Numbered from the stretch's first letter, positions 993-25,463 are shown. The stretch: DNA of 64,000 bases from Nitrospira sp. (GCA_036984305.1 BQWY01000002.1:24151-88150), one strand, 5' to 3'. Notes: generated by a model not told the origin, from the letters alone. Numbers and translations are program-made.

Positions 993-1448
993 ATGATCGA
1001 AATCTTTACGGATGGAGCCTGTAGCGGTAATCCAGGCCCCGGTGGATGGGGCGTGCTGATGCGGATCAGTCAGGCGGAAACGGAATTGTGCGGGGGCGAA
1101 CCAGAGACGACGAACAATCGTATGGAGTTGCTCGCCGTCATCGAGGCCCTGCAGTCGCTGAAAGAGCCGATGACCGCCCTTGTGTACACCGACTCACAGT
1201 ATGTGCAGAAGGGCATCAGCGAGTGGATTCATTCGTGGAAGCGGCGCGGCTGGCGAACGGCCGGCAACCAGCCGGTGAAGAACGAGGACTTGTGGCGTCG
1301 CCTGGATGCGTTGGCTGCCTCCCACACCATTGAGTGGCGGTGGGTCAGGGGCCATGCGGGTCACCCGGAGAACGAGCGTGCCGACGCATTGGCCCGGGAA
1401 GGGTTGGAACGGGCCAGGAAGATGGGTCGTATTCTGGCTAAGGATTAG
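993..1448 (+). CDS. rnhA: ribonuclease HI
   Basis: 151 aa. Classic RNase HI signature: [42 protein letters not shown]. Confidence 0.93.
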
Positions 1449-1530
1449 GGGGGAGTGGAAAGGCCACATCCGCCCATCCTAAGCTGTACACCGGAGCGCC
1501 GACCGTCCGGCACTCCCTGGCCGTTTCCCC

Positions 1531-2298
1531 CTACTCGTTGGAATCTGTAAACGCGCGCAGCACATCCGACACCGATAAGACGCCGATGATGGTACCGTCC
1601 GCGGTAACGGGCACGTGACGGATGCCCTGCTTCTTCATCAAGCTCATCGCCTCGGAGAGCGGCTCGTCTTCCTCGATGGTCATCAACGACTTGCTCATGC
1701 ATGAGCGGACGGTCGCGGAATTTGGATCGAGTCCCTTGGCGACCGCCCGACGGCTCAGATCGGAATCCGTGATGATGCCGACGTAGCGAGATCCGTCATC
1801 GACGATCAGCGATCCGACCTTGTACTTTTGCAGCATCTTGCCCGCTTCCTTGATCGTCGCCCCATAATGGATGCTATGCACGTCGTGCGACATGTAGTCT
1901 TCCACGGTGGCGCGGAGTGGCCCGTTGCCGTCCCGATTCTGCCGGCTCATTTGAATTCTTCGCCGCAACTCCAGATCGGCGAGACAGCTTTCAAGTACCT
2001 GCCGCCGCTGTTGCAAGCTTTCCCGCTCGACATCGTGCGTGCCGTTCTCCTGCGCCTCCTCAGGAAGGAGACCGGACTCACCGGTCTTGGCATACACATA
2101 GGCCTCCGCTTCGTCCGAGGCCGCTCCAAAGACCTGCGCAATGAGTTCCTCGGCGGATTCGTCGAAATCGTCCAGCGACCCCGTGGCCCGCTTACGCGAG
2201 AGGAAGGGCTGGAGCTTGGTCAGTTGTGTTTTGATCCGCTCGATATAGCGATCGAGAATATCAATTCGTGTCAATCCTGTGCGTACGCGCTTTGGCAT
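1531..2298 (-). CDS. CBS-pair domain protein with a coiled-coil N-terminus
   Basis: The C-terminal half has two CBS-like repeats (VGSLIVDD...GIITDSDL, IRHVPVT..GVLSVSDV). ATG at 2298 is preceded by GAGGAG. The longer 268-aa ORF start is less likely. Last gene of the minus-strand nitrogen unit. Confidence 0.75.
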   Translation of the reverse strand: MPKRVRTGLTRIDILDRYIERIKTQLTKLQPFLSRKRATGSLDDFDESAEELIAQVFGAASDEAEAYVYAKTGESGLLPEEAQENGTHDVERESLQQRRQVLESCLADLELRRRIQMSRQNRDGNGPLRATVEDYMSHDVHSIHYGATIKEAGKMLQKYKVGSLIVDDGSRYVGIITDSDLSRRAVAKGLDPNSATVRSCMSKSLMTIEEDEPLSEAMSLMKKQGIRHVPVTADGTIIGVLSVSDVLRAFTDSNE

Positions 2299-2402
2299 CG
2301 TGGCTCTCCTCTGGTTCCGTGCGAGAGAATACCGCACGCCCCTTCCGGGCTCAAGAGCCTTGTCACGGTCGCCGGAATAACCGGATCACCACAGCAGCCA
2401 CA

Positions 2403-3815
2403 TCATCCTCCACCGCGCTTTCCCTGCATTTCCTTGTCGTAAAACTCCAACATTTGTGCGATCTCATCCTTGGTCATTCCCTTTTCGATCCACTGGTGCG
2501 TCTCCTGTTGGAGCAATTCCGTGGCGACGACCGGAGAAAGGTCCCTGACTTTCGGCAAAAACTTCGTGTAAAAGTGCTTCGCGACCTCATAGAAGCCCTG
2601 CCAATGGACATAGTCGGGCGCCATCTTGGACAGTCCGTGGCGGGCACGACGGCCCTCATGGTGCCACAATTCGTAGAACACCCATTCGATTTCTTCGTCG
2701 AATGGCGTGGGCGTGATCTTGCCGAGCTCTTTCAGACGATCCATGGCCACCTTTGCCGGCTTGCCGAACTTCTCGTTATAGAGATTGATGCCGCTGTCCA
2801 TTTGAGTGAAAAACCTCGCCACAATTTCCGCGCTGTGACAGGACGAGCAGACCTGCGTCATCGCTTTCCTTCGCGATTCATAATCCTCGAGACGCGTTGA
2901 CACCACTGGCCGAAGCGTCCAGCTAATGCGATCGCCCACGTCGTGCGTGACCTCCTGAGTCCCGGTCGCACTCATATGACACGTGGCGCAGGTCGGGAAG
3001 AGATAATCTTTTCCAGGCCGCCATTGCTCCTTGGGGTGACTGAGCTTCATCTTGTCCTTATTCGCGGTGAAGAGGACTCCGTGCTTGCTCTCATAGTACG
3101 CCTCGATCTGTGGGTGATCCGGCCCCATGTGGCATCTCCCGCAGCTCTCCGGTTGCCTGGCTTGCGCGACGGAGAAACTGTGCCGGGCATGACAGGCCGA
3201 ACAGGTGCCCTTCGACCCGTCCGGATTCACCCGACCGATGCCTGAATTGGGCCAGGTCGATGGGTGAAGCTTCCCTTTGTCCATGACCTTGACGACGCTG
3301 CCGTGGCAGCCCGCGCATCCGGAGGTCCCGACCTCGGGCCCCTCCACGACATTGCCCAGAAAGTTATCGAGCGAGCCGATGAACTGCGCCGCCTTGGCAT
3401 GGTGAGACTTTCCAAATTGCCGCGCTTCCTTGTCGTGGCACCGCATGCAATCTTTCGGCGTGACCAGCGTCGAAATGAGCGCTCCCTCGTGGTCATACGC
3501 ATCCGGATCGCCCTTTTCGGCCCGGTGACATTCCACGCAGCCGATGCCTTTGGGCGCATGCGCGCTGGTTTTCCAATCATTGATGCCGCCGACCCCCACG
3601 TCCTTTGTAGTATGGCAATCGATGCAACGTTTGTTGTCCGCGGAAATGAAGGGCCGTAGTCCGCCCCCGCGACGCTCCTCGACCTTGATATACCCGATCC
3701 CCGTCAAGGCGAAAAACAAGATCAGGCATAGGCCGCCGATCATGTACCGAGTCCAGTTGAGCGATCCGTTTTCGTGTGAGTCCGTTGCGGAGTGCTCGTG
3801 CGATGGTTCGTTCAT
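2403..3815 (-). CDS. membrane-anchored octaheme cytochrome c (HAO-family-like), candidate nitrite/hydroxylamine-converting enzyme
   Basis: 470 aa with eight CxxCH motifs (CIDCH, CVECH, CMRCH, CAGCH, CSACH, CGRCH, CATCH, CSSCH). N-terminal TM helix YMIGGLCLILFFALTGIGYI. AAGGAG lies before the ATG. Confidence 0.85.
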   Translation of the reverse strand: MNEPSHEHSATDSHENGSLNWTRYMIGGLCLILFFALTGIGYIKVEERRGGGLRPFISADNKRCIDCHTTKDVGVGGINDWKTSAHAPKGIGCVECHRAEKGDPDAYDHEGALISTLVTPKDCMRCHDKEARQFGKSHHAKAAQFIGSLDNFLGNVVEGPEVGTSGCAGCHGSVVKVMDKGKLHPSTWPNSGIGRVNPDGSKGTCSACHARHSFSVAQARQPESCGRCHMGPDHPQIEAYYESKHGVLFTANKDKMKLSHPKEQWRPGKDYLFPTCATCHMSATGTQEVTHDVGDRISWTLRPVVSTRLEDYESRRKAMTQVCSSCHSAEIVARFFTQMDSGINLYNEKFGKPAKVAMDRLKELGKITPTPFDEEIEWVFYELWHHEGRRARHGLSKMAPDYVHWQGFYEVAKHFYTKFLPKVRDLSPVVATELLQQETHQWIEKGMTKDEIAQMLEFYDKEMQGKRGGG

Positions 3816-3870
3816 TTGGGCTCCTTGTAATTCAGCGAGAGTCCCGCACCAGAAGCGGGCTTCCGTGTTC

Positions 3871-4962
3871 CTACATTTGGGTGTCGAGGTACATGAGGAT
3901 CACCAGCGCCCCGATGGCGATCGTCCCGACCGTGGCGTTGATAACACCCATTGGCCATCCGCGCCGGGCCAGTTCCCGATCAATAAACGGGTACACCACG
4001 AAGAGGAGCGCTCCTCCAAGCAACCCCCACAACGCCACCGGCCCCGGTAGCAGCGAAATGACCATGAAGGGAGCCGAGAAATACCACGGAGGAGAGACAT
4101 CGGCCGCCACTTCTTGCAGATCGGCTGGCGGTCCGAGGGTCGGCGGAAAGATCATGACCAGATCCACGATCAACAGCAGCATGCCAACAGCCACGGCACC
4201 CATCAGCAGCGTATGGACGGGATAAAAGGGATGAGATTGTCGGCTCCCCGCCACATCCGCGAACCCGATCAATCGCACGACGAGGACATGCCCGCCAACA
4301 AGCACCACAAGCAGGACCGGCAACAACTTGGTATGTAAATCGTACAAGCGCAAGAGTGTGTTGTCCGAGACCTCTTCCCCCCCGCGCAGAAGGTACAACA
4401 GCGGCGTGCCGACGATGGGCAATGCGCCCAACATGTTCGTCACCACCGTCATGCCCCAGTAGGACACGTTGTCAAAAATCAAGGAATAGCCGGTAAACCC
4501 CATGGCGAAGGTGACGAACAACACAATGGCGCCGGTCACCCATTTCCATTCTCCCGGTGTCCGGTAGGCACGTGTCAGAAATACGCGGATCACGTGAAAC
4601 AGCAGAAACAAGATCATGAGATCCACTGAAAATTTGTGCACGCCCCGCACAAACCATCCCAGATACACCTCTTCCGTGATGAACTCGACGCTCTCATAGG
4701 CCTTGCCGGGCGATGGCACATAATAAAACGTCAGCAACAGTCCCGTTACGATCAGGAAACCCAATAGCGTCAGCGGAATGGCCCCCAGCGTGTACGGCCA
4801 CCAATCAAGGTGCTCGGGCAAATCCTTCTGGATATAAGCGATCCAGCGTTGCGAGTTCCGGTCTTGGTCGACTTTGACGAGATCGGTGTCGGAATGCGCG
4901 CTTGGCATCATGTCTCCAAAAGGGACGTCCTCGATCGCACCAGCGTTCTGACTACGTGGCAA
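3871..4962 (-). CDS. cytochrome b (b6 plus subunit-IV-like, fused)
   Basis: 363 aa, polytopic. Four candidate heme-ligand His (GVHKF, LFHVIR, LHTKL, GGHVL). Qo-type motif reads PPWYF. Start is uncertain: TTG at 4962 or ATG at 4911/4908. Confidence 0.85.
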   Translation of the reverse strand: MPRSQNAGAIEDVPFGDMMPSAHSDTDLVKVDQDRNSQRWIAYIQKDLPEHLDWWPYTLGAIPLTLLGFLIVTGLLLTFYYVPSPGKAYESVEFITEEVYLGWFVRGVHKFSVDLMILFLLFHVIRVFLTRAYRTPGEWKWVTGAIVLFVTFAMGFTGYSLIFDNVSYWGMTVVTNMLGALPIVGTPLLYLLRGGEEVSDNTLLRLYDLHTKLLPVLLVVLVGGHVLVVRLIGFADVAGSRQSHPFYPVHTLLMGAVAVGMLLLIVDLVMIFPPTLGPPADLQEVAADVSPPWYFSAPFMVISLLPGPVALWGLLGGALLFVVYPFIDRELARRGWPMGVINATVGTIAIGALVILMYLDTQM

Positions 4963-5419
4963 GATTCACGTACACCTGTCCGGCCCGATTCACCACCTCG
5001 TAACGGTCCAGGGGGCGCGGCGGAGGCCCGGCAATGTTCCGGCCTTGCTTGTCGTAGATTCCCTGGTGACAGGGGCAGATAAACTGCTCTCTCCGCTTGT
5101 CCCAGGACACGAGACAGCCGAGGTCCGTGCAGCGCCTGGAAAACGCCGCGACGCCCTCGTTGGTTCTCAGGACCAACAGCTTATGGTTCCCTAATTCCAT
5201 CGTGATGGCATCGTTGAGCGGAAGGCTCTGTTCCACTCCGAGTAGGACCGGGACATTGCGTTTGGTCGTGCCCGTCGGCACGAGGAACTGCACGAACCGA
5301 AGCCCGAGCAAGCCCATCCCGAACAACAGGCCAAAGCCCATGACGGCCTGGCTTAAAAACCGTCTCCGCCCCGGATCATCATGAATAATGGCCATGCGCC
5401 ACGAATCCTTTCTCGCCAT
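4952..5419 (-). CDS. Rieske-type [2Fe-2S] protein with a Tat signal and a non-canonical box 1
   Basis: Twin-arginine motif GRRRFLSQAV. Cluster boxes are CTDLGC and CPCHQG. Start is ATG 5419 or 5395; the 175-aa ORF start at 5479 would overlap amt by 100 nt. Confidence 0.8.
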   Translation of the reverse strand: MARKDSWRMAIIHDDPGRRRFLSQAVMGFGLLFGMGLLGLRFVQFLVPTGTTKRNVPVLLGVEQSLPLNDAITMELGNHKLLVLRTNEGVAAFSRRCTDLGCLVSWDKRREQFICPCHQGIYDKQGRNIAGPPPRPLDRYEVVNRAGQVYVNLAT

Positions 5420-6539
5420 GTTGCGCCAGATCCAATCCGAAAATTTCGGCCTGTTCGTCCACGCGCGGGGACAGTACAAGCCTCAGCCCCTTCAATGATA
5501 AGAAGCTCATGCCGCCCGCGAACGCAGCCACCACGACCGTCGAGACCAGTTGCGCAAAGAACTGATAGGGATATCCAAAGAACAACCCATCGCTCCCATC
5601 CGGATTGGCCTCGGTCGAGGCGAACAGACCGGTCGCCACCATCCCCCACGCTCCGCCCACCCCATGCATGCCGAATACGTCCAAGGAGTCATCATATCCA
5701 AGGATCAGCTTGACGTAATTGACCGCCATATAGCAGAGTCCCCCCGCTCCGGTTCCGATCACCACCGCAGACACCGGACTGACATAGCCCGCAGCAGGCG
5801 AGATGGCCACCAATCCGGCGACCAGCCCGCTGCCCATGCCCAGCGCCGTCGGCTTCTCCCGTTGCAACCATTCTGCCACCATCCAGGTCAGCGCAGCCGA
5901 CGCCGCCGACAGTTGGATGGCGACAAACGCGGTCGTAACGATGGTCATGGACACCGGACCGGGTCCAACCGTCATTCCAAACCAACCCGCCCACATCAAC
6001 CCGACTCCCAGAAAGGAGAAGGGCAAATGGCTGGGCAACATTTCATTGCGACCATACCCCCGTCGTGTTCCCAGCACGATGGCTGCCACCAACGCTGTCA
6101 CCCCGGCACTGAGATGGACGACTGCCCCTCCCGCATAATCCAGGCTGCCCAACTTCGTCAGCCATCCTCCCGCCCACAGCCACGATGCCACCGGGCCGTA
6201 GACCAGCAGAATCCAGAGCGCTCCAAACGCCAGGAAGAACGAAAATCGAACCCGCTCGACGATCCCGCCTGCAATCAAGCCGAGCGAGAGGGAGGCCATG
6301 AGGGCATGATGGACCGCGCGTAGCGACCCGGTTTCATCGCCTCCGTAGAGGATCCTGTCACCGACACACAGCCACACGAGGGAGGCGACTGCAAGTGCGC
6401 TAAAGGGCATGCCGATGGTATTCAGCACGTTTTTTCTCCGCACCATCCCTCCGTAAAAGAGCGCCACACCCACAAGGACCAGCATCAGTAGGCTGGTTGC
6501 GATGAGGAACCAGAGCGTTTCGCCACCTGGGTTCGTCAT
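5379..6539 (-). CDS. amt: ammonium transporter (Amt family, short form, no signal peptide)
   Basis: 386 aa with Amt signatures: LFYGGMVRRKNVLNT, DYAGGAVVHLSAG, DDSLDVFGMHGVGG. Confidence 0.92.
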   Translation of the reverse strand: MTNPGGETLWFLIATSLLMLVLVGVALFYGGMVRRKNVLNTIGMPFSALAVASLVWLCVGDRILYGGDETGSLRAVHHALMASLSLGLIAGGIVERVRFSFFLAFGALWILLVYGPVASWLWAGGWLTKLGSLDYAGGAVVHLSAGVTALVAAIVLGTRRGYGRNEMLPSHLPFSFLGVGLMWAGWFGMTVGPGPVSMTIVTTAFVAIQLSAASAALTWMVAEWLQREKPTALGMGSGLVAGLVAISPAAGYVSPVSAVVIGTGAGGLCYMAVNYVKLILGYDDSLDVFGMHGVGGAWGMVATGLFASTEANPDGSDGLFFGYPYQFFAQLVSTVVVAAFAGGMSFLSLKGLRLVLSPRVDEQAEIFGLDLAQHGEKGFVAHGHYS

Positions 6540-6742
6540 TCTCGTCCGCCGCTCAGCGAGACCAGATAGTCAGGTCCTGCTGCCCGTCGCAGCCACACTT
6601 CACCTGATCGGCTCAACCGGTCGATCCCGGCGAAGACTTGCGCCCAGCAAAGGCCGGAACGAAGCCATAGCCGATCCAATGTTTGCGCACCCTCTCGTTG
6701 AAGGATCTCCTTGACGATGGTTTCTGTCGATGCACCTGCCAT
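6536..6742 (-). CDS. small hypothetical protein (68 aa), possibly winged-helix-like
   Basis: ATG at 6742 is preceded by AGGAGGTGA. Its stop overlaps the amt start (ATGA). The upstream part of the 106-aa ORF overlaps a terminator-like hairpin and is probably not coding. Confidence 0.55.
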   Translation of the reverse strand: MAGASTETIVKEILQREGAQTLDRLWLRSGLCWAQVFAGIDRLSRSGEVWLRRAAGPDYLVSLSGGRE

Positions 6743-6779
6743 AGTCACCTCCTGTCCCTTGAGACCAATAAAAAAGCGC

Positions 6780-6841
6780 CGCGCGGTGAGTGGGAGTCCC
6801 GTCATAGGATTCTCCCAGTCCCCGCCGGCGCCTTTGCCGGC
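6780..6841 (-). terminator. terminator/attenuator-like structure between amt (7040..8359) and the small ORF
   Basis: Minus strand: a long GC-rich imperfect hairpin (GCGCCGGCGG...CCGCGCGGCGC, inner stem CUGGGAG/CUCCCA) followed directly by UUUUUU. It ends about 20 nt before the small ORF's SD. Confidence 0.45.
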
Positions 6842-7039
6842 TTCCTTCGACCGCATTGTCGACTATCTCGACCTGAGCCGCCCTGTGGCCGTGACGCTAC
6901 CGCTGTGGGTCTCCACGGGCCCGTGGGCGACATTCGCACAATTCAGTTGGCTGCACGCACAAGGACCGATGTGACGTGCACATGGGAACGCACATAGCAC
7001 GACGACCGCCCCGGATAGCCCCCCTCAACCGCATTCGCA

Positions 7040-8359
7040 TCATGAATAGGCGCGCTCGTTGTGCTGGGCGAGGTCGAGCCCGATCCGCTCTTCCTCCAAC
7101 GTCACACGCAATCCCACCGCCCAATCGACCAATTTCAGGATCGCCAGCGTCCCGACAGCGGAATAGAGTCCTACGGCAATCGTCGCCACGACCTGTGCAC
7201 CGAAGAAGTGGGCGTTGCCGTACAACAACCCGTCGGCACCGGCCGCATTCACGGCTTTGGACGCCAGCAGACCGGTCGCCAACATTCCGACGACTCCAGC
7301 CATCCCATGAATTCCAACCACGTCCAGCGAGTCGTCATAGCCGAGTTTACTCTTCATCATGATCGCGCCGTAGGATAGCGCTCCAGCCATCACCCCCATG
7401 ACCACCGCGGAGTACTGACCGACATACCCGGCGCCCGGTGTCACCATCGCCAGACCGGCCACCGCACCGCTGGCAACCCCCAGCACGGTTGGCGTACCAC
7501 GATGCGCCCATTCCACGGCCATCCACGTCAAGGCGCCCGAGGTCGCTCCGATATGCGTCGTGAGAAAGGCCGCCACTGCCGTCCCATTCGCAGCCAAGGC
7601 ACTTCCCGCGTTGAAGCCGAACCACCCGAACCACAACAAGCCCGTGGCGAGCAGGACCATGGGGAGATTGTGTGGCGCCAGATAGTCCGTGCCGTAGCCA
7701 TGGCGGGGACCGAGGACGAGCGCACACACCAGGGCGCCGACTCCGCTACTCAGATGCACGACAGCCCCTCCTGCAAAATCCAATGCCCCGGCGCTCGCGA
7801 GCCACCCGCCTCCCCACAACCAGTGGGCAATCGGACAATAAATGGCCAACGACCAGAGCCCGGAGAACAGCAACACCGCGCTGAACTTCATGCGCTCTGC
7901 AAATGCCCCGGTAATCAGCGCCGGTGTGATAGCGGCGAACATCATCTGAAAGATCATGAATGCCTGGTGCGGTATGGTTGGAGCATACACAGCATGCGGT
8001 ACCAGCCCGACGCCGCTCAGGCCCACCCAGTCCAGGCTGCCGAGCAATCCCTTGGCATCGGGACCAAAGGCCAGACTGTATCCAAGGCTCATCCACAACA
8101 GGCTCACCAAACAGACGATCACAAAGCTTTGCATGATCGTTCCCAGGACGTTCTTGCTTCGAACCAGTCCTCCATAGAACAATGCGAGCCCGGGCATGGC
8201 CATCGCCAAGACCAACGCTGAGCTGACTAATACCCAGGCGGTATCCGCCACGTTGATGGTCGGTGAAGTGGCGGCGGTCGGTTCTTGGGCCCCCGCAATT
8301 GTAATCGGCGCAACGCAGGCAAGTACCAACCATACGCTCCATCGGCCGCTTCGATTCAT
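7040..8359 (-). CDS. amt: ammonium transporter with signal peptide
   Basis: 439 aa. N-terminal signal (WSVWLVLACVAPITIAGAQE). Amt motifs: LFYGGLVRSKNVLGT, DFAGGAVVHLSSG, DDSLDVVGIHGMAG. GAGGGG before the ATG. Confidence 0.93.
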   Translation of the reverse strand: MNRSGRWSVWLVLACVAPITIAGAQEPTAATSPTINVADTAWVLVSSALVLAMAMPGLALFYGGLVRSKNVLGTIMQSFVIVCLVSLLWMSLGYSLAFGPDAKGLLGSLDWVGLSGVGLVPHAVYAPTIPHQAFMIFQMMFAAITPALITGAFAERMKFSAVLLFSGLWSLAIYCPIAHWLWGGGWLASAGALDFAGGAVVHLSSGVGALVCALVLGPRHGYGTDYLAPHNLPMVLLATGLLWFGWFGFNAGSALAANGTAVAAFLTTHIGATSGALTWMAVEWAHRGTPTVLGVASGAVAGLAMVTPGAGYVGQYSAVVMGVMAGALSYGAIMMKSKLGYDDSLDVVGIHGMAGVVGMLATGLLASKAVNAAGADGLLYGNAHFFGAQVVATIAVGLYSAVGTLAILKLVDWAVGLRVTLEEERIGLDLAQHNERAYS

Positions 8360-8447
8360 AGCGACCCCTCGACGGTATCGGAGCCGACCGGCCTGATAGA
8401 TCTGAATCCAGCAGTACGTGTTCTCATCAAACGCTCACCACTCATTG

Positions 8448-8888
8448 TCAGAAGGTCTTGTACTCCAACCACTTCCCATTCAGCGTGATTTTACAGCGCG
8501 CTTCGCCCTGACTCCCGATGACCTTTTCCATATCGAGCGAAAAATCGATGGCGCTCATGATGCCGTCGCCGAACATTTCGTTGGCCATATCACGGAGCGA
8601 ATCGCCGTAGACTCCGATCACCTCAAGTAAGCGGTACTTGAACGGATCGGTCATGTTCGGAAAATCTCCCCGAATCGGGAACTTGCTGAGCGACGCCGTC
8701 TGCTCGGCATCCAGACCCAGCAACCCACCGACCTGCTTCGCTTCCTCCGCCGTAAACTTATGATTGCCATTGAGGACCGCCGCGACGAACGTGGGGTTCT
8801 TCCCCACCACCTTCGCCACCTCCGCAATCGTGACCTTTTTCGTCAACCGTTTCTCCTTGATCGCCTTGCGCACGTCCTCTTTCGTCAT
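8448..8888 (-). CDS. cynS: cyanase (cyanate hydratase)
   Basis: 146 aa, typical cyanase length and sequence (TIAEVAKVVGKNPTFVAAVLNG..., C-terminal ...KITLNGKWLEYKTF). AAGGAG before the ATG. Confidence 0.9.
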   Translation of the reverse strand: MTKEDVRKAIKEKRLTKKVTIAEVAKVVGKNPTFVAAVLNGNHKFTAEEAKQVGGLLGLDAEQTASLSKFPIRGDFPNMTDPFKYRLLEVIGVYGDSLRDMANEMFGDGIMSAIDFSLDMEKVIGSQGEARCKITLNGKWLEYKTF

Positions 8889-8954
8889 CGCCGTTCTCCT
8901 TCCACCGTAGGGGTTCTGGCTGTCCTGCAGTCTGACCCGTCACACCTTACGCCG

Positions 8955-9806
8955 TTACGAAAAACTCACCAGCACCGGCGTCGCTTCGCTCGTCTCCTCC
9001 ACCCGCGTTCCGCTCCCACGCCCTACGTGCGAACCATGGCGCATGAGGAAGTGAATGATGTGGTTGCGGATCTTGTAGTAATGCGGATGCTCGATGATCG
9101 ACTCGCGAGAGCGAGGTCGCGGGATCGTGACTTCAACGATCTCGGCCACGCGCGACGCGGGTCCATTGGTCATCAGAAGAATCCGGTCTGACAGAAGAAT
9201 GGCTTCATCGACGTCATGGGTCACCATGAACACGGTGTTCCGGGAGCTGTTCCACATTTGAATCAGTTCTTCTTGGATGACCCCCCGCGTCAGGGCGTCG
9301 ATCTGCGCAAAGGGTTCGTCCAGCAAGAGCACCTTTGGCTCAATCGAAAAGGCACGAGCCAGACCGACCCGTTGCTTCATTCCTCCCGACAACGCCGCCG
9401 GACGCTTGGCCTCCGCCCCCTTCAGCCCGACTAACGAAATGTATTTATGCACGTGATCTGCCACCTGGGCATGACTCCAATTTGGATACGCCGACCGGAC
9501 GGCCAAGGCGATGTTTTCGAAGACGGTCATCCACGGCATCAACGAGAAGTTCTGGAATACCACCATTCGATCAATGCCCGGACCAATCACCTCCTTGCCT
9601 TGAAGAATGATGCCGCCCTCGGAGGCGGTTTCAAGGCCGGCGATAATGTTCAGTAGCGTGCTCTTGCCACAGCCGGAATGGCCGATGACGGTGACGAATT
9701 CGCCCTGCTCGATTTTGATCGTCACGTCCTTGAAGATGCATACGTCGCCATCCCCCGAAGTACTGGGAAAAAACTTGCTGACATGGTCGATTTGTAGAAA
9801 TGACAT
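8955..9806 (-). CDS. ABC transporter ATP-binding protein (NrtD/CynD-type, nitrate/nitrite/cyanate family)
   Basis: Walker A GHSGCGKST, signature LSGGMKQR, Walker B LLLDEP. ATG 9806 is preceded by AGGAG and lies 2 nt after the permease stop. Confidence 0.88.
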   Translation of the reverse strand: MSFLQIDHVSKFFPSTSGDGDVCIFKDVTIKIEQGEFVTVIGHSGCGKSTLLNIIAGLETASEGGIILQGKEVIGPGIDRMVVFQNFSLMPWMTVFENIALAVRSAYPNWSHAQVADHVHKYISLVGLKGAEAKRPAALSGGMKQRVGLARAFSIEPKVLLLDEPFAQIDALTRGVIQEELIQMWNSSRNTVFMVTHDVDEAILLSDRILLMTNGPASRVAEIVEVTIPRPRSRESIIEHPHYYKIRNHIIHFLMRHGSHVGRGSGTRVEETSEATPVLVSFS

Positions 9807-9808
9807 GG

Positions 9809-10789
9809 TTACTCCTGATAGGTGACGAAGCCCGCCAGCTTGTTGAATCCTGCATCCAGAATGACGCCGACACATCCGACCACGAGAATTGCGAAGATGA
9901 CCCCGGAAATGTCCAGATTATTCCATTCGATCCAGCTCAGATAGCCGACGCCCAATTCCCCCAGCAGCATCTCGGCAGGGACCACCGCAACGAGCGCGCT
10001 TCCGAATGCGATCCGCAGACCGTTGATGATCGTGGGCGCCGCCCCCGGGAGAATGACCGTAAAGAGCCGCTTGAACCAGGAGAGTTGTAGAATGGATGCG
10101 ACGTGCAAGTAGTCCTTCCTGAGCGCATTCACTCCGAACGCTGTCGTGGCCAAGGTTGGCCACACGGCCGCCATGAAGACGACCAGAATGGCCGTCCACT
10201 TGGGATCCTTCACCGTGTACAGCATCAACGGCATCCAGGCCAACGGCGAGATCGGCTTGAGAATCTGGATGAACGGGTTGACCGCCTTGAACAGAACTTT
10301 GTTGAGGCCAAGAAAGACACCCACCACGATGGCAACAATCGAAGCGGCAAGAAATCCGGCGCCGAATCGCGAGACGGTGTAGAGCACTAAGTAGGCGATT
10401 CCATGATCGTTCGTGCCCTTCTTGGTAAAGGCCTCACCGAGTTCCTCACGAGCTTTGACGATGACCGCGTAGGGCCCCGGCACCCCTTTGACCTTTTCCT
10501 TTTCCGGATTCCAGACATAGACTCCGTCCGAACCGCGTACGATGTCGCCGTTGAATTCCATCAGCATGAGTTGCTCGTCGTTTAGCCCCGTCGCATCGAA
10601 CGGCGCCCGCACAGTCGCGAGATGCCATGCCGCCAGAAACACGGCCAGGAGGAAGAGTGTAATGATCCATGGACTATCCTTCGCCTGTCGGGTCATGGCG
10701 GCGCTCACGGTTTTCTTCGCCGTGGGGCGACATTCCGCCTCAACGCTTCCCAACGAGGCATGTCCTGCGTCGGCTATCTCCGTCAACAT
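9809..10789 (-). CDS. ABC transporter permease (NrtB/CynB-type)
   Basis: Polytopic BPD-type permease. ATG 10789 is preceded by AAGGAAGG. The 512-aa ORF N-terminus overlaps the binding-protein gene and looks non-coding. Confidence 0.85.
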   Translation of the reverse strand: MLTEIADAGHASLGSVEAECRPTAKKTVSAAMTRQAKDSPWIITLFLLAVFLAAWHLATVRAPFDATGLNDEQLMLMEFNGDIVRGSDGVYVWNPEKEKVKGVPGPYAVIVKAREELGEAFTKKGTNDHGIAYLVLYTVSRFGAGFLAASIVAIVVGVFLGLNKVLFKAVNPFIQILKPISPLAWMPLMLYTVKDPKWTAILVVFMAAVWPTLATTAFGVNALRKDYLHVASILQLSWFKRLFTVILPGAAPTIINGLRIAFGSALVAVVPAEMLLGELGVGYLSWIEWNNLDISGVIFAILVVGCVGVILDAGFNKLAGFVTYQE

Positions 10790-10827
10790 TCCGACCTTCC
10801 TTTCTGTTTCATTCGACAGCATGCCGC

Positions 10828-12162
10828 TCACGCCATGCTGTGAATGGAAAATCCCTTCAGATACTCCTCCGGCTTGGCTGGATCGAACTCCTTCCCCATA
10901 ATGACGTGCTTCATCGTCGTGGCTTGATGCGTCTGATAGCCGAGTTCTTTTGCGACTCGATCGCAATCCGCCGCGCGATAGACTTGCTCGGCGACCTTCG
11001 CATAGTCCACATCGCCTTTGAGATGCCCCCATCGCTTCATTTGGGTCAAAATCCAAATCGCCATCGAATGCCAGGGGTAGGGATCGAAGTCGATTCGATT
11101 GGGCTCTTTTCGAATATGCCCCAGGCCGTCGGCGTAGGTACCGGTCAGTACTTGCTCCAGCACAGTCACCGGTTGATTCAGATAGTTCGTCGGCGCAATC
11201 GCCGCCGCGATTTCCTTTCGATGGGACGGATCGGACGCGTAGTGCGTGGCGTCCACGATGGCTCGAAACAAAGCGTGAAACGTGTTGGGGTACTTTGTCG
11301 CAAATTCCTTGGATACCGTGAAGGCGCAGCAGGGATGCCGGTCCCATATTTCTTTCGATAGCTTAAAGAGGAACCCGACATTCTCGTAGACCGCCCGTTG
11401 ATTGAAGGGATCGGGTGCCAAATAACCGTCCACATTGCCTGCCTTGAGATTCGCCACCATTTCAGGTGGGGGCACCACTCGTATCTGCACATCCTTGTCG
11501 GGGTGCACACCCCCTTCCGCCAAAAAATACCGTAGCAAATAGTTGTGCATGGAGTAGTCGAATGGCACACAGAATCGAAACCCCTTCATATCGGCGGCGG
11601 TCTTTACGTTCTTGTGTTTGATGTGCAGCGTGATGGCTTGGCCGTTGATGTTCTCAACGGCCGGCATGTAGAAGGGCTTGGGGACGGAACCGGCCCCCAG
11701 CGTGATCGCCAAGGGCATAGGGGTCAGCATATGGGCCGCGTCGACGTCCCCGTTAATCGCCCAATCCCGCACCATCGCCCACCCCGCTGCGCGCTTCACC
11801 GATGCATTCAAGCCGTATTTCTTATAGAACCCCAGGGGTTCGGCCATGATGATGGGGGTGGCGCATGTGATGGGGATGAACCCGATCGTCAGGTCTTTCT
11901 TTTCCGGCTTCCCTCCCGCATCCGCCGCAAAGGCCACCAACCGGCTCAGTGGAAAGACCTCCGCGATACACGCCGTCACTACGGCCCGGCCCATCAGTTC
12001 AAGTACTCGGCGCCGACCCGGATCCGCGGCAGCCAACACCGCCGAGGTCACAACGTGTTCGAGACCCGCCCGATAGCGCTCGTCTGTGGATTGAACCGAA
12101 TGAGATTGTGTCTCTCCTGCACCGTCATTCTCGTGTCTCAGGACGTCGTTCATGGGATCCAT
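10828..12162 (-). CDS. periplasmic substrate-binding protein, NrtA/CmpA/CynA family, Tat signal
   Basis: GRRRVLELMGRAVV twin-arginine signal. NrtA-like core (TIGFIPITCATP..., DGYLAPDPFNQRAV, HPCCAF). ATG 12162 is preceded by GAGGAG. Confidence 0.87.
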   Translation of the reverse strand: MDPMNDVLRHENDGAGETQSHSVQSTDERYRAGLEHVVTSAVLAAADPGRRRVLELMGRAVVTACIAEVFPLSRLVAFAADAGGKPEKKDLTIGFIPITCATPIIMAEPLGFYKKYGLNASVKRAAGWAMVRDWAINGDVDAAHMLTPMPLAITLGAGSVPKPFYMPAVENINGQAITLHIKHKNVKTAADMKGFRFCVPFDYSMHNYLLRYFLAEGGVHPDKDVQIRVVPPPEMVANLKAGNVDGYLAPDPFNQRAVYENVGFLFKLSKEIWDRHPCCAFTVSKEFATKYPNTFHALFRAIVDATHYASDPSHRKEIAAAIAPTNYLNQPVTVLEQVLTGTYADGLGHIRKEPNRIDFDPYPWHSMAIWILTQMKRWGHLKGDVDYAKVAEQVYRAADCDRVAKELGYQTHQATTMKHVIMGKEFDPAKPEEYLKGFSIHSMA

Positions 12163-12242
12163 TGTCGTTCTCCTCGCCACGTTTGAGCTGTTGGTTGCGT
12201 GGCTTCTGTTCAACCTCCATCCCGCACTTCCGCCACACCCAC

Positions 12243-12284
12243 AAAAAAAAAGCGTCCCTATTCCCTTCAGGGGAACAAGGACGC
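12243..12284 (-). terminator. intrinsic terminator A in the 5' leader of the ABC-cynS unit
   Basis: Minus strand: GCGUCCUUGUUCCC-CUGAA-GGGAAUAGGGACGC followed by U9. Confidence 0.8.
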
Positions 12285-12292
12285 CGTCGTCC
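12279..12292 (-). promoter_or_regulatory. GGAC-GACGGC-GUCC hexaloop hairpin overlapping the 5' arm of terminator A (candidate antiterminator P2)
   Basis: Read directly. Its 3' arm GUCC is part of the terminator A stem. Loop has G1 and G4. Confidence 0.55.
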
Positions 12293-12315
12293 AAAGGCGG
12301 AGGCTTCGTGCCCCC

Positions 12316-12515: not shown

Positions 12516-13925
12516 CTATACATCGTAGTACAGGTAGTATTCATACGGCACCGGTCGCAAGCGCATGGGATCGACTTCCTTGGCGCGCTTGTAGCCAATC
12601 CAGGCCTCGATCAGATCTTCGCTGAAAACACCGCCCTTGAGCAGGAATTGGTGATCCTTCTCCAAGTTGCGCAACGACTCTTCCAGGCTGCCCGGCATGG
12701 TCGGGATCTTCGCCGCTTCCTTGGCCTCGAGGTCGTAGAGGTCCTTTTCGGCCGGTTCTCCGGGATTGATCTTGTTTTCGATGCCGTCGAGACCCGCCAT
12801 CAACATGGCTGAAAACGCCAGGTACGGGTTGCAGGATGGATCCGGAAAGCGCACCTCGATGCGTTTGGCCTTCGGACTCGGCGAATACATCGGTATTCTG
12901 ATCCCTGCCGAGCGATTACGGCTGGAGTAGGCCAGCAACACCGGCGCCTCGAAGCCGGGCGTCAGGCGCTTATACGAGTTGGTCGAAGGATTGGTGAAGG
13001 CCGCCAACGCGGGAGCGTGCTTCAAGATCCCGCCGATATAATACAGGCAGAGTTGCGAGACGCCCGCATACTCCTTGCCCGCGAACAACGGCTTCCCGTC
13101 TTTCCAAATGCTCTGATGCGTGTGCATACCCGACCCATTGTCCCCGAATATGGGTTTCGGCATGAAGGTCACGGTCTTCCCATGCCGGCGGGCTACGTTC
13201 TTGACGATATACTTATACATCATCATTTTGTCGGCCGTGCGCAGCAGCGAATCGAACCGGATATCGATCTCCGCCTGACCCGCCGTGGCCACCTCGTGGT
13301 GGTGCTTCTCGATCTGGATTCCGGCCTTTTCCATTTCCAAAATCATCTCGCTGCGGATGTCCTGCTGCGTATCGGTCGGGGCCACCGGGAAATAGCCTTC
13401 CTTATGGCGGATCTTCCCGCCCAAATTTGGGCCTTCCTGCCCGCTGTTCCAGATGCCCTCCTCCGAATCGACAAAGTAGTATCCGCTATGGCTGGTTTGA
13501 TCGTAGCGGGCCTGGTCGAAGATGAAGAACTCGGCCTCGGGGCCCCAATACGAGATGTCTCCGATCTTGGTGCTTTGCAAATGTTTCTCGGCCTTTTGGG
13601 CCACGTACCGCGGATCGCGATCGTACATTTCCCTCGTGATGGGATCCAACACGTTGCCGACCATGCTCAAGGTCGGGACCGTGCAGAACGGATCCAAACA
13701 GGCGGTCGCCGGATCGGGAATCAGCAACATGTCGCTGTTGTTGATAGCCTTCCAGCCGCGGATGGACGATCCGTCCAGGCCGGAGCCGTCTTTGAACAGC
13801 CCTTCGGTCAATTCCCCGACGGGAATGCTGAAATGCTGCCACGTCCCAATCAAATCGATGAACTTGAGATCGACGACTTGTACCTTGTTCTTCTTCGCGA
13901 GCTCCATCACTTCCTTGACCGTCAT
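12516..13925 (-). CDS. glnA: glutamine synthetase type I
   Basis: 469 aa from ATG 13925 (AAGGAGG upstream). GSI motifs FDGSSI-like (LDGSSIRGW), [32 protein letters not shown]. Confidence 0.95.
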
Positions 13926-13948
13926 TACGCCCCTCCTTTTCAAGACCG

Positions 13949-17034
<3,086 letters not shown>

Positions 17035-17071
17035 TCAACTGCACACCAGCCCGACCTTGCATCGCGCCGCA

Positions 17072-18424
17072 CTACGAGTAGGCTCGTTCATTGTGTCCGG
17101 ACAAATCCAACCCGCTGGCCTCTTCGTCCGGTGTCACGCGCAATCCGACTGCTCCATCGACCACTTTCAGGAGGATATACGTCACAATGATCGAAAAGAC
17201 GGTGACTGCGCACACGGTGAGAGCCTGAACACCGAAGAATGCCGCACCACCGAAGAACAACCCGTCGGCCCCTCCGGCATTAACGGCTTTGGAAGCGAAC
17301 AAGCCTGTGGCGAGAATACCCAAGATGCCGCCTACGCCGTGGATGCCCACCACGTCAAGCGCGTCATCATAGCCGAACTTCCCCTTCCAAACAATTGCCA
17401 AGTAGCACAGGCACGCTCCAATGGCTCCGATCAGGATGGACGAAAATGGCCCGACGTAACCGGCCGCGGCCGTCACCGTGGTTAGCCCGGCGACCGCTCC
17501 GCTCGCCATCCCGAGCACGGTTGACTTCCCGCGGTGTTTCCACTCCACGAACATCCACATGAGCCCGCCTGACGCTGCTCCGAGGTGCGTCGCGACGAGC
17601 GCGGTCACCGCCACCCCATTGGCCCCAAGGGCCCGTCCCGCATTGAGCCCGAACCAGCCGAACCACAGCAATCCTGCTCCCAGTAACGTTAAGGGAAGGT
17701 TATGTGGGGCAATGTAGTCGGTACGATAGCCACGCCGCTGCCCAAGTACCAACGCACACACGAGCGCGGCCACGCCCGAGTTGATGTGCACCACGGCCCC
17801 CCCGGCAAAATCCAGCGCGCCCAGCTTGCTCAGCCAGCCCCCACCCCATAGCCAATGGGCAACCGGCGCATAGACGATCAGCGACCAGAGGAGGGCAAAC
17901 AACAACATGGCGCTGAAACGAACACGCTCGGCAAGCGCCCCGCTAATCAACACGGGGGTGAATGCCGCAAGCATGAGTTGGAACAGCATAACGGCCTGAT
18001 GGGGTACGGTCGGCCCATACGTCCGGTGCGGGTCCAACCCCACGCCGGAAAGGAACATCCATTCAAGACTTCCGATCATTCCTCCAAGGTCGGTGCCGAA
18101 CGTGAGCGTGTAGCCGACCACGACCCATGCCAGTGATACCGCGCAAAGAATACTGAGGCCATGCATGATGGTGGCCAGCGCATTCTTTTTTCTGACGAGC
18201 CCCCCGTAGTACAGTGCGAGGCCCGGCACGATCATGACCAGCACGAGCGCCGTCGAGGCCAGCATCCATGCCGTGTCACCGCTATCAATGTTCGGTCCCC
18301 CGCTCCCGGGTTGGCCGGATTGCGCCCACGCTGTATCACCGCCCACTCCCGCTATCAGCAGCCCCACCAGTCCCCCCACGCTTGCCAGGGCAAGACCGTC
18401 TGCCGTACGCCGATGGAGTCTCAC
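17072..18424 (-). CDS. amt: ammonium transporter with signal peptide
   Basis: 450 aa. Amt motifs LYYGGLVRKKNALAT, DFAGGAVVHINSG, DDALDVVGIHGVGG. GTG start preceded by GGGAGGA. Confidence 0.92.
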   Translation of the reverse strand: MRLHRRTADGLALASVGGLVGLLIAGVGGDTAWAQSGQPGSGGPNIDSGDTAWMLASTALVLVMIVPGLALYYGGLVRKKNALATIMHGLSILCAVSLAWVVVGYTLTFGTDLGGMIGSLEWMFLSGVGLDPHRTYGPTVPHQAVMLFQLMLAAFTPVLISGALAERVRFSAMLLFALLWSLIVYAPVAHWLWGGGWLSKLGALDFAGGAVVHINSGVAALVCALVLGQRRGYRTDYIAPHNLPLTLLGAGLLWFGWFGLNAGRALGANGVAVTALVATHLGAASGGLMWMFVEWKHRGKSTVLGMASGAVAGLTTVTAAAGYVGPFSSILIGAIGACLCYLAIVWKGKFGYDDALDVVGIHGVGGILGILATGLFASKAVNAGGADGLFFGGAAFFGVQALTVCAVTVFSIIVTYILLKVVDGAVGLRVTPDEEASGLDLSGHNERAYS

Positions 18425-18495
18425 ATCGTCCTCCCTTCAGACACGCATCATTCAGGTGAGAAACGGGGCCTAGCCCTCGCCGGGGCCACCTGCCT

Positions 18496-20280
18496 CTAGC
18501 GTTCCTCCCGGTATCGGTTCGTGATCGGCATTCGCCGATCCTTACCTAATCCGCGGTGAGTAATCTTGATTCCTACCGGTGCCTGCCGGCGCTTGTACTC
18601 GCTCCGGTCGACTTGCGCGACAACATGCTCCACCGTGTCACGCGCAAATCCCATTCCGACCATCTCATCGACCGAACAATCGTCTTCTACATAGGCCTTG
18701 AGAATTGGGTCCAAGACCGCATAGGGCGGCAAGGAATCTTCATCGCGTTGGTCTGGACGAAGCTCGGCGGTCGGCGGACGATCCAGGATCCGTTTGGGAA
18801 TCACGGGATTCGCTTCGTGTTCGTTCCGCATCCGGGCCAGCTCGTACACGAGAGTTTTCGGTACGTCCTTGATGACGGCAAATCCACCTGCCATGTCGCC
18901 GTATAACGTCGCGTAGCCGACGCTCATCTCGCTCTTGTTGCCGGTGGTCAACACGAGATGTCCGAACTTGTTGGAGAAGGCCATCAGGAGATTGCCTCGG
19001 ATCCGCGCCTGCAGATTTTCTTCCGTCACATCGGATTGACACCCCTCGAAGGATGACGCCAGTGACTTCCGGTACGCCTCGAAGACCTGGGTGATCGGGA
19101 GCGAGCGGCATTCGATCCCAAGCCGGCGCGCCAGCGCGGCAACGTCCTCGTGGCTCTCCTCGGAGGTATAGGGAGACGGCATAAACAAAGCCAGTACGTT
19201 ACCTGGACCGAGCGCGTCCGCGGCAATGGTCGCCGTGAGCGCGGAATCCACCCCGCCGCTCACCCCAATGACCACACGCCGAAAGCCGTTTTTCCTCACG
19301 TAGTCACGGACTCCAACCACGAGGGCACGATAGACCTCGGCCAAAGGGGTCAATAGTGGAGTCTGGGCCGCCACGAGCCTCGGCCGCTTTACCGACGCCG
19401 GCTGCGTGCTCGGCAACAGCAGCCTTTCCACGCCCACATGCCGGCGTCCCATCGCGGCCTTGCGCGATCCCTGTCCGATGCGGCCGCGTCCGACAGGTTG
19501 CGCGTTCACATCAGCGAGGAGGAAATCCTCCTCGAATGCTTTTGCTCGCGCGATCACCTCGCCCGTCTGGTCGAGGATCACACTGTTTCCATCGAAGACG
19601 AGCTCGTCTTGTGCCCCGACGATGTTCGTGTATGTCACGATGACGTGATGATCCCGAGCACGCGTGGCCAACATCTGCTCACGCTGGCGGCTCTTGCCCA
19701 TGTGGAACGGGGACGCGTTAATATTTACGATGATTTCGGCCCCGGCTGCCGCCTGGGCTTTCGTGGGCCCTTCCGGGAGCCAGATATCCTCGCAGATATT
19801 CACGCCCAGACAGGTCCCATTGAGCATCAAAACCGGAACCCGGCTGCCGGGCATGAAGTAGCGGTTTTCATCGAACACCCCGTAGTTCGGCAGGTGTTGC
19901 TTGGCGTACACGGTGACCAATTGCCCATTGACGATCACAGCCGCGGCGTTATACAGCGCGCCTCGCCCTGACGGTAGCGAGACAGCTCGCCGAGACGACG
20001 CCGAAGGCTCCAGTTCCTGTCCCACATAGCCAACCACGACGGCGAGATCGCGGCATTGCGGTATCAGTTTCTCGAGTGCCAGTCGCGTGTCCTCGATGAA
20101 ACGCGGTTTGAGTAACAGATCTTCCGGCGGATATCCCGTCAATCCCAACTCGGGAAAGGCCACCAGATCGGCATTGGCTTTTCGTGCTTCCTTGATCCAT
20201 CGTTCAATTGCAGCGAGGTTACCCGTGAGATCTCCCACGGTCGGATTCATCTGCGCCATCGCGATCCGGAAGAGCCGCAT
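18496..20280 (-). CDS. nadE: glutamine-dependent NAD+ synthetase (nitrilase/CN-hydrolase domain plus NAD synthetase domain)
   Basis: ATG 20280 is preceded by AAGGAG. N-terminal CN-hydrolase (FPELGLTGYPPEDL, ICEDIW). C-terminal SGGVDS PP-loop. The upstream part of the 666-aa ORF covers the leader and terminator and is not coding. Confidence 0.9.
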   Translation of the reverse strand: MRLFRIAMAQMNPTVGDLTGNLAAIERWIKEARKANADLVAFPELGLTGYPPEDLLLKPRFIEDTRLALEKLIPQCRDLAVVVGYVGQELEPSASSRRAVSLPSGRGALYNAAAVIVNGQLVTVYAKQHLPNYGVFDENRYFMPGSRVPVLMLNGTCLGVNICEDIWLPEGPTKAQAAAGAEIIVNINASPFHMGKSRQREQMLATRARDHHVIVTYTNIVGAQDELVFDGNSVILDQTGEVIARAKAFEEDFLLADVNAQPVGRGRIGQGSRKAAMGRRHVGVERLLLPSTQPASVKRPRLVAAQTPLLTPLAEVYRALVVGVRDYVRKNGFRRVVIGVSGGVDSALTATIAADALGPGNVLALFMPSPYTSEESHEDVAALARRLGIECRSLPITQVFEAYRKSLASSFEGCQSDVTEENLQARIRGNLLMAFSNKFGHLVLTTGNKSEMSVGYATLYGDMAGGFAVIKDVPKTLVYELARMRNEHEANPVIPKRILDRPPTAELRPDQRDEDSLPPYAVLDPILKAYVEDDCSVDEMVGMGFARDTVEHVVAQVDRSEYKRRQAPVGIKITHRGLGKDRRMPITNRYREER

Positions 20281-20352
20281 GGTACTCCTTCGAAACTCCC
20301 GTGACCGACTCCATTTCCTGAGCGACCGGACGTGTCGCCGTCCTGCACGAAC

Positions 20353-20399
20353 AAAAAAAAACGTCCTTGATTCCCAGACGATTGGGAACCCAAGGACGT
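20353..20399 (-). terminator. intrinsic terminator B in the nadE leader, downstream of ureD
   Basis: Minus strand: ACGUCCUUGGGUUCCCA-AUCGUC-UGGGAAUCAAGGACGU followed by U9-10. Confidence 0.85.
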
Positions 20400-20407
20400 C
20401 ATTGTCC
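20394..20407 (-). promoter_or_regulatory. GGAC-AAUGAC-GUCC hexaloop hairpin overlapping the 5' arm of terminator B (candidate P2)
   Basis: Read directly. Loop has A1 and G4. Its 3' arm is the first part of the terminator B stem. Confidence 0.6.
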
Positions 20408-20435
20408 GTGGTTATGTCGTACCGACACCCTGATC

Positions 20436-20451: not shown

Positions 20452-20466
20452 AGGACGGTAGCAGGC

Positions 20467-20496: not shown

Positions 20497-20559
20497 TCAA
20501 GGCATGCCGTATCCTTACGCAGGGACACGTACGGGTCGAATGCTGCTGGGTGCCACCAG

Positions 20560-25460: not shown

Positions 25461-25463
25461 CGC

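Follow-up and report, generated by a model that had tools for sequence, protein, structure and literature searches.

The stretch of DNA analyzed here (the window; 64,000 nucleotides from Nitrospira sp., GCA_036984305.1, BQWY01000002.1:24151-88150) carries, between positions 2,403 and 5,419, three adjacent genes that encode a Rieske-type iron-sulfur protein, a cytochrome b, and an octaheme cytochrome c. These genes, and all features given below, lie on the minus strand unless stated otherwise. The gene for the Rieske protein (147 amino acids (aa); 4952-5395, with an alternative start at 5419; PF00355, E 4e-11) is followed by that for a cytochrome b of the fused b6 plus subunit-IV type (3871-4911, within an open reading frame (ORF) spanning 3871-4962 with a likely start at 4911; PF00033, E 6e-48) and by that for the octaheme protein (470 aa; 2403-3815), an IhOCC-like member of the HAO family that corresponds to the 'ONR/OCC' of the Nitrospira literature. 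Read 5' to 3', the gene order is cynS, amt, a small ORF, amt, Rieske, cytochrome b, octaheme gene, and a gene for a CBS-domain protein. The amt and Rieske genes overlap by 17-41 nt, the Rieske and cytochrome b genes are separated by ~40 nt, and the cytochrome b and octaheme genes by 55 nt, in agreement with a preliminary description of the window that placed the trio downstream of two amt genes and cynS on the same strand, with short gaps or overlaps. The operon status of the trio is inferred from this spacing and from published co-expression. The set is the published Nitrospira module of ONR/OCC with Rieske/cytochrome b, and the main finding is already known: the three products probably (with a probability of roughly 0.75) constitute one membrane complex, a quinol:nitrite oxidoreductase forming ammonium for assimilation.

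The octaheme cytochrome c

The octaheme protein contains CxxCH motifs at residues 64, 93, 123, 167, 205, 225, 276, and 323, and no CxxCK occurs among the heme motifs of the 470-aa ORF. Because the protein matches PF13447 ('multi-haem cytochrome') with E 2.6e-31, this number of motifs is not due to chance. The sole Cys outside of the heme motifs (C30) lies in the single hydrophobic helix found by hydropathy, which is N-terminal (residues 25-43), and a ribosome-binding site (AAGGAG) is located 8 nt 5' of the gene start. The motif count and the helix bear out the earlier account of a membrane-anchored protein with exactly eight CxxCH motifs.

Among solved structures, the closest by sequence is 4QO5 (IhOCC, an octaheme enzyme from Ignicoccus hospitalis that reduces nitrite and hydroxylamine; phmmer E 2.6e-46, profile E 6e-65), and HAO, HOX, HAOr, and HDH rank below it (E 1e-18 to 1e-31 in phmmer or profile searches, with the HAO profile value at ~1e-31 and phmmer values of 1e-18 to 1e-23 for HAO, HOX, and HDH). 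NrfA gives a local match only (E 1.2e-3 over 63 residues), and TvNiR of Thioalkalivibrio gives no match among PDB sequences at E<=1. An AlphaFold2 model built on an 89-sequence alignment (predicted local distance difference test (pLDDT) 84; a 15-sequence version with pLDDT 52 was discarded) was compared with known folds using Foldseek, which returned 4QO5 at the top (E 1e-16, TM (TMq) 0.67) and the reductive HAOr 6H5L second, followed by the oxidative HAOs; E-values were 1e-8 to 1e-11 for HAOr, HOX, HAO, and HDH, and 4-6 for TvNiR (TM 0.22). In a published structural phylogeny, HAO, HDH, and IhOCC belong together, and NrfA and ONR form a separate clade (PMC9250108). As far as sequence and predicted fold can determine it, the octaheme protein is an HAO-family, IhOCC-like enzyme, which bears on the family placement proposed as a check when the gene was first described. 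Membership in the TvNiR-type ONRs was rejected on account of the missing CxxCK and the lack of both sequence and fold similarity to TvNiR; for the same reasons, 'ONR' as the name of the Nitrospira protein denotes a function and not a family. The C-terminal ~55 residues of the octaheme family fall outside of the IhOCC match and contain invariant W442, G446, and Y459, and Nitrospira members end in a Gly/Lys/Arg-rich tail (residues ~430-470; 2403-2530).

The catalytic site was examined in a mafft alignment of the family with HAO of Nitrosomonas europaea (NeHAO, 570 aa), a provisional sequence, particularly in its C-terminal part, that was checked by its total length, by the Tyr at position 491, and by fragments matching search outputs at the right coordinates. 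The test for the cross-linking Tyr rests on this alignment because the PDB searches missed the Tyr region: the profile alignment stopped short of it, and the C-terminal 133 residues, searched alone against PDB sequences, yielded spurious repeat-protein matches and none from the HAO family. All eight heme motifs pair one-to-one with those of the provisional NeHAO sequence, and the fourth (C167-A-G-C-H171; 3303-3317) aligns with the motif of its catalytic heme 4. The Asp233-His234 pair (3114-3119), invariant in 89 family members, aligns with the VDH motif of NeHAO and its distal Asp291/His292. With the same provisional sequence, the active-site Tyr358 of NeHAO is matched by the invariant Arg302 (2910-2912), and the cross-linking Tyr491 by the invariant Trp405 (2601-2603); at the nearby Y402, family members carry either Tyr or Phe. 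With Trp405 replacing Tyr491, the P460 cross-link is, as judged from this alignment, impossible in the octaheme protein, which addresses the question of the cross-linking Tyr that had been raised for this gene. The lack of this Tyr is an accepted sign of reductive HAOs (PMC8042395).

The Rieske protein and cytochrome b

The Rieske gene more likely starts at 5395 than at 5419, given a database protein of 147 aa and a MAIIHDD N-terminus that is conserved among homologues. Near this N-terminus is a twin-arginine motif, GRRRFL (GRRRFLSQ), followed by a hydrophobic segment (residues 14-39) that is predicted to be a signal or anchor. The preliminary description of a Rieske protein exported by the twin-arginine translocation (Tat) pathway stands in this respect, supported by the predicted motif and the PF00355 match, but the start is probably 5395 and the sequence of the first cluster-binding box had been overlooked. 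In canonical Rieske proteins, box I (C-x-H-x-G-C) and box II (C-x-C-H) each contribute Cys and His ligands to the cluster. Box II of the window protein is canonical (CPCH, 5066-5077) and is invariant in the homologue alignment; box I reads CTDLGC (5114-5131), with an Asp codon (GAC, 5123-5125) replacing the first cluster-ligand His.

This Asp is present in 120 of the 120 closest Rieske homologue clusters, and sequencing error or a pseudogene was rejected as its source on these grounds. In a library clustered at 50% identity, Asp is found in a single full-length cluster; of the 136 nearest clusters in which the box can be read, 135 have His. The invariant features of the Asp clade (120 homologue clusters) are C89, D91, C94, C107, C109, H110, and a GPPPRPL proline loop, and no compensating invariant His was found elsewhere in the alignment of these homologues. 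No mention of CTDLGC or of an aspartate ligand in Rieske proteins was found in the literature searched, the coverage of which was incomplete, and no Rieske ligand change is mentioned in a 2025 survey of the Nitrospirales (PMC12342949). The His-to-Asp change, together with PPWY in the partner cytochrome b and the restriction to amt-linked loci (see below), appears unreported.

The cytochrome b has two His pairs, H109/H123 and H210/H225 (spacing of 14 and 15 residues), and hydropathy indicates seven hydrophobic segments arranged 4+3, i.e., b6 plus subunit IV in one chain. Along with the PF00033 match, these features confirm the four-His cytochrome b fused to a subunit-IV-like part that was originally reported. 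The four heme-ligand His are kept in all 22 aligned sequences (the window protein and 21 homologues). The sequence contains no Cys, and consequently no site for heme ci. The Qo motif was correctly read at the outset as PPWYF in place of PEWY: the PPWY at 4081-4092, evident both in the sequence and in the alignment of homologues, lacks the acidic second residue of PEWY or PDWY, and the window protein diverges from the partners of His-type Rieske proteins throughout the ef-loop region. In a survey of Qo motifs, no bc1 complexes other than those of the acidophilic Acidithiobacillus ferrooxidans are named with PPWY, and Pro at this position is noted to permit no side-chain hydrogen bond to quinol (PMC4122944).

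Distribution of the module in related loci

Reference genomes were scanned with a profile of the octaheme protein, and 81 related loci were compared. The best matches are Nitrospira loci, among them one in the complete genome of N. moscoviensis, where the octaheme protein, cytochrome b, and Rieske protein are 87%, 78%, and 70% identical to those of the window, the gene order is the same (cynS-amt-amt-Rieske-cytb-OCC-CBS), and both the Rieske Asp and PPWY are shared. This synteny and the octaheme identity bear out the comparable arrangement in N. moscoviensis that was mentioned with the preliminary description. The co-occurrence of the three genes, likewise proposed as a check, was observed in 23 of the 81 loci, with the Rieske and cytochrome b genes upstream of the octaheme gene in all except L055. 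At several of the other octaheme loci, a NapC/NrfH-like gene for a four-heme protein lies immediately downstream, and at many no partner of either kind is present. Loci in which an octaheme gene without Rieske/cytochrome b is followed by a ~200-aa ORF with four CxxCH motifs (L058, L062, L065, L068, L072, L075, L076, and L078) match the NapC variant reported for lineage IV of the Nitrospirales.

The trios fall into two types. Type A, with Rieske CTDLGC and PPWY, comprises eight Nitrospira loci (L001-L007 and L013) plus L010-L012, which have an octaheme protein 64% identical and come from metagenome-assembled genomes (MAGs) labeled Ignavibacteriales, Thermodesulfobacteriota, and Deltaproteobacteria. 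Type B, with Rieske C(T/P)HLGC and PEWY, comprises 13 loci from many phyla. An amt gene lies directly upstream in all nine of the type A loci that reach that far and in none of the 13 type B loci, and a NapA-like gene within 6 kb is seen in none of the type A loci and in nine of the 13 type B loci; the two types are clades, so that the loci do not count as independent instances of this association. For example, the type A locus of the Deltaproteobacteria MAG (L012) reads porin-PII-amt-amt-Rieske-cytb-octaheme, and the nearest His-type Rieske relative (49% identity) is encoded in a cluster that reads napD-napA-ferredoxin-Rieske-cytb-octaheme.

The gene of the type B loci that encodes a NapA-like molybdopterin oxidoreductase lies ~0.5-3.7 kb downstream of the octaheme gene in L017, L041, L050, L056, L059, L069, L071, and L079, and upstream in L081. 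These NapA-linked loci come from at least seven differently labeled lineages, a distribution that appears far wider than the published case of Caldithrix abyssi. In that organism nitrate reduction has been reported, the genome lacks Nrf, and a nap-Rieske/cytb-Hao cluster was proposed to convert nitrite to ammonium (PMC5317091). The NapA link of type B and the amt link of type A both speak for a module that serves to reduce nitrite, and suggest that type B is its dissimilatory and type A its assimilatory version.

Proposed function and alternative explanations

Nitrospira, the dominant nitrite oxidizers of soils, waters, and treatment plants, in many cases have no assimilatory nitrite reductase of the usual kind. 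The module represents a proposed route by which Nitrospira convert nitrite to biomass nitrogen, and has been the subject of several papers (Koch 2015, Ushiki 2018, Mundinger 2019, Koch 2019). It was proposed from the genome of N. moscoviensis (Koch 2015, as cited in PMC6606698, PMC12342949, and PMC6311188), was described again in strain KM1 and in N. japonica (the latter in PMC7522533), and has been drawn within a conserved nitrogen-assimilation region (PMC6311188). In the 2025 survey of the Nitrospirales, most genomes with ONR have an adjacent Rieske/cytochrome b, and a quarter, all of lineage IV, have NapC instead (PMC12342949). In N. moscoviensis growing on nitrite as the sole nitrogen source, expression of all three genes is high and of similar strength (PMC6606698), and in N. 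japonica ONR transcripts decrease once ammonium is added (PMC7522533). Nitrospira genomes that encode ONR only are without NirA/NirC (PMC6606698, PMC6311188, PMC7522533, PMC12342949).

Based on homology, quinol would be oxidized at the Qo-type site of the seven-helix, two-heme cytochrome b acting together with the anchored Rieske protein bearing the Tat signal. The conserved gene order and the published co-expression suggest that the Rieske cluster then passes electrons to the membrane-anchored, periplasmic octaheme protein, which would take the place of cytochrome c1 or f. By analogy with IhOCC, epsilon-Hao, and the physiology of Caldithrix, heme 4 would catalyze nitrite's six-electron reduction to ammonium, at a site predicted to comprise a His proximal ligand, distal Asp233/His234, and Arg302, with no Tyr cross-link. 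Judging from the gene context, the ammonium formed in the periplasm could be imported by the Amt proteins encoded upstream and assimilated by GlnA under the control of PII/GlnD. A dedicated quinol-oxidizing module feeding an octaheme nitrite-to-ammonium enzyme, as put forward for this window, is supported by synteny, published expression, the HAO-family placement, and the PII/amt linkage, and is equivalent to the hypothesis already published. By drawing on the quinone pool, the module might recover energy that is out of reach for a ferredoxin enzyme, a point already made in the literature; the second electron of each quinol may or may not drive an energy-conserving Q cycle.

What the window adds is the conserved change of the Rieske His to Asp and of PEWY to PPWY, which separates the assimilation-linked trios from those linked to nitrate reductase. 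The Asp and Pro replacements may give rise to a lower-potential, differently protonated cluster that is matched to a multiheme reductase. Tentatively, and at somewhat less than even odds, the assimilation-linked subtype can be regarded as having a re-ligated Rieske centre, either Cys2-His-Asp or Cys3-His through a 'disulfide' Cys, paired with the loss of the PEWY Glu. It is speculated that a carboxylate ligand should lower the potential of the cluster and remove one of its two protonatable His, and, equally speculatively, that the altered cluster could fit electron delivery to low-potential hemes at a cost to the classical bifurcated Qo reaction. If this is true, the Rieske-derived cluster and the Qo site of the module would be of a new kind, and a Rieske centre with a lower potential and different proton coupling could suit a quinol-driven multiheme nitrite reductase. 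If the Asp does ligate the cluster, these loci would constitute a natural experiment on how the potential and proton coupling of Rieske centres are set.

Several points weigh against a quinol:nitrite oxidoreductase that forms ammonium. The physical association of the three proteins is deduced from gene order alone, and a promoter and terminator scan of 1400-9200 gave nothing above shuffled expectation and defined no operon. The Rieske protein is without one canonical ligand, which makes a normal [2Fe-2S] cluster, or quinol oxidation, uncertain. No enzyme of the octaheme clade has been assayed: a review states that biochemical characterization of the module is lacking (PMC6311188), and none was found in the literature searched up to 2026. 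Finally, HAOr from anammox bacteria, the closest characterized reductive HAO, makes nitric oxide (NO) and not ammonium (PMC8042395).

The example of HAOr, which does so without a Tyr cross-link (PMC8042395), raises the idea that the window protein also reduces nitrite by a single electron to NO, with the module serving signaling or redox regulation instead of assimilation. HAOr (6H5L) is the second-best structural match, and its relative Kuste4574 is encoded in a Rieske/cytochrome b operon, that of the anammox complex R/b-3 (PMC12485887). However, IhOCC is clearly the better match in both sequence and fold, the octaheme gene has, in two phyla, a setting of amt, PII, glnA, and cynS, and ONR-only Nitrospira without NirA grow on nitrite as the sole nitrogen source with transcripts that drop when ammonium is present, all of which render NO formation improbable. 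It is also quite unlikely that the main substrate is hydroxylamine or NO released by neighboring ammonia oxidizers and scavenged or detoxified to ammonium, with nitrite being secondary. The ammonium so produced could still be imported by the adjacent Amt, and the in vitro substrates of Tyr-less epsilon-Hao enzymes include both hydroxylamine and nitrite (PMC8042395); yet the genes are highly expressed in pure culture on nitrite only (PMC6606698), and the coupling of the sister His/PEWY trios to nitrate reductase makes nitrite the expected substrate.

Two further explanations, both very improbable, concern the electron-transfer subunits. Nitrite oxidizers need reverse electron flow, and the PPWY-type bc1 of A. 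ferrooxidans runs uphill; the octaheme protein might take electrons from cytochrome c/NXR or from an oxidized nitrogen compound, and the modified Rieske/cytochrome b pair drive them uphill into the quinone pool. That the Qo-motif survey names PPWY for the A. ferrooxidans bc1 alone would fit this direction, as would the reversed Q cycle that it proposes in Geobacter metallireducens for a complex of the APWY clade (PMC4122944). In contrast, the missing Tyr cross-link makes oxidative HAO chemistry unlikely, regulation by nitrogen status has been reported (PMC7522533), the same subtype stands beside PII-amt in the Deltaproteobacteria MAG, and Nitrospira have two other copies of complex III (PMC6606698). 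As for the Rieske protein, the loss of one of four canonical ligands with no compensating invariant His would be explained if the Asp-type protein were cluster-less and structural only, with the octaheme protein receiving electrons from cytochrome b or another donor. The invariance of C89, D91, C94, C107, C109, H110, and GPPPRPL in 120 clusters argues instead for a retained metal site, and the Tat signal is kept; Tat export is normally used for cofactor-loaded proteins. In view of where the genes lie and of the published expression data, each of these explanations is less likely than reduction of nitrite to ammonium at the expense of quinol.

The nitrogen-assimilation neighborhood

The gene preceding the Rieske gene encodes an Amt ammonium transporter (5379-6539; PF00909, E 3.9e-90), the stop of which overlaps the Rieske start. 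Farther upstream are a small ORF (6536-6856, 106 aa as listed) without a Pfam or NCBIfam match, a second Amt (7040-8359; PF00909, E 2e-119; TIGR00836 above cut-off), the cyanase CynS (8448-8888; TIGR00673, 136.6 bits, above cut-off), and the ATPase, permease, and binding protein of an NrtABD/CynABD-type ABC transporter (8955-12294; TIGR01184 E 8e-101, TIGR01183 E 1.7e-49, and SsuA-family, respectively). The region 12516-31543 continues with glnA, glnD, a third amt, nadE, ureD/ureG/ureC, and urtABCDE-like genes (Pfam). No NIR_SIR (nitrite/sulfite reductase) domain was found in 15 scanned ORFs of at least 439 aa elsewhere in the window, a set that leaves out a 470-aa ORF at 28690-30102 inside urtB, and this is consistent with the earlier statement that the cluster has no nirA/nirBD-type reductase. 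Between the amt and CBS genes there is no gene for cytochrome c1, cytochrome f, or a fused c-type subunit.

The small ORF at 6536-6856 has a conserved core of about its last 70 aa, and overlaps the start of the downstream amt by 4 nt. In five Nitrospira loci (L001, L003, L004, L007, and L013), tblastn detects it 5' of the amt to which the Rieske gene is adjacent; it is not PII, although PII would be expected beside amt. On the other side of the trio, 66 nt 3' of the octaheme gene, a 268-aa protein (1531-2337) with two C-terminal CBS domains and an uncharacterized N-terminal half is encoded, and a homologue follows the octaheme gene in Nitrospira loci L001, L003, L006, L007, and L009. This protein may regulate the module or act as a sensor for it.

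Other observations concern the transporter genes and the regions beyond them. The Nrt/Cyn permease ORF (9809-11347) has an N-terminal extension of ~300 aa that overlaps the binding-protein gene (10828-12294), and its true start is probably internal because the NtrB match begins at residue 306. A HEAT-repeat match (residues 87-172) precedes the membrane domain in the UrtB-like permease ORF (28575-30215), reflecting either an unusual fusion or an ORF start placed too far upstream. Two long overlapping ORFs, 31569-33008 (479 aa) and 32343-34256 (plus strand, 637 aa), have no Pfam match; it is likely that at most one of them is real, and one may encode an outer-membrane protein upstream of urtA. 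A GAF-GAF-ANTAR protein of the RNA-binding antiterminator type is encoded at 34266-35636, ~2.7 kb past the far end of the urea-transporter genes, from which it is separated by two unassigned ORFs. ANTAR regulators frequently control nitrogen-source operons through leader-RNA hairpins. The regions 37190-45600 and 52791-54110 contain pilQ and pilM (type IV pilus), 3-dehydroquinate synthase, rpoN, and secY, an ordinary housekeeping context.

Comparison with known systems

The module has features in common with several characterized or proposed systems. TvNiR and NrfA are, like the predicted function of the window protein, multiheme enzymes that convert nitrite to ammonium. IhOCC (4QO5) resembles the window protein in its HAO-type layout of eight hemes, in the long insertion that separates heme motifs 4 and 5, in its C-terminal helices, and in lacking P460; it differs in being 25% identical to the window protein, in HMMER matches that omit the N-terminal membrane helix of the latter and end ~55 residues before its C-terminus, and in that no Rieske/cytochrome b partner is mentioned for it in the literature examined. 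The R/b-3 complex of Kuenenia stuttgartiensis (kuste4569-4574) likewise combines Rieske/cytochrome b with a Tyr-less octaheme subunit of the HAO family, Kuste4574 (PMC12485887), but it has more subunits, is a proposed NO former in the anammoxosome membrane, and contains an HAOr-type protein that is a more distant relative.

The module resembles bc1 and b6f complexes in its cytochrome b, with four His and a b6 plus subunit-IV architecture, and in its Rieske-fold protein, with a Tat signal and CPCH, and it departs from them in having no c1 or f, Asp for His in box I, Pro for Glu in PEWY, and no Cys for heme ci. The nap-Rieske/cytb-epsilonHao clusters of Caldithrix abyssi and similar organisms contain the same three-gene module with a proposed quinol-to-nitrite route to ammonium (the octaheme protein of the Calditrichaceae MAG locus, L069, is 47% identical to that of the window), but they have the canonical CTHLGC and PEWY and are linked to NapA (dissimilatory) and not to amt/PII. 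The closest counterpart is the ONR of N. moscoviensis and N. japonica, to which the window module is orthologous; by sequence there is no functional difference, and the window represents the same system in another Nitrospira genome.

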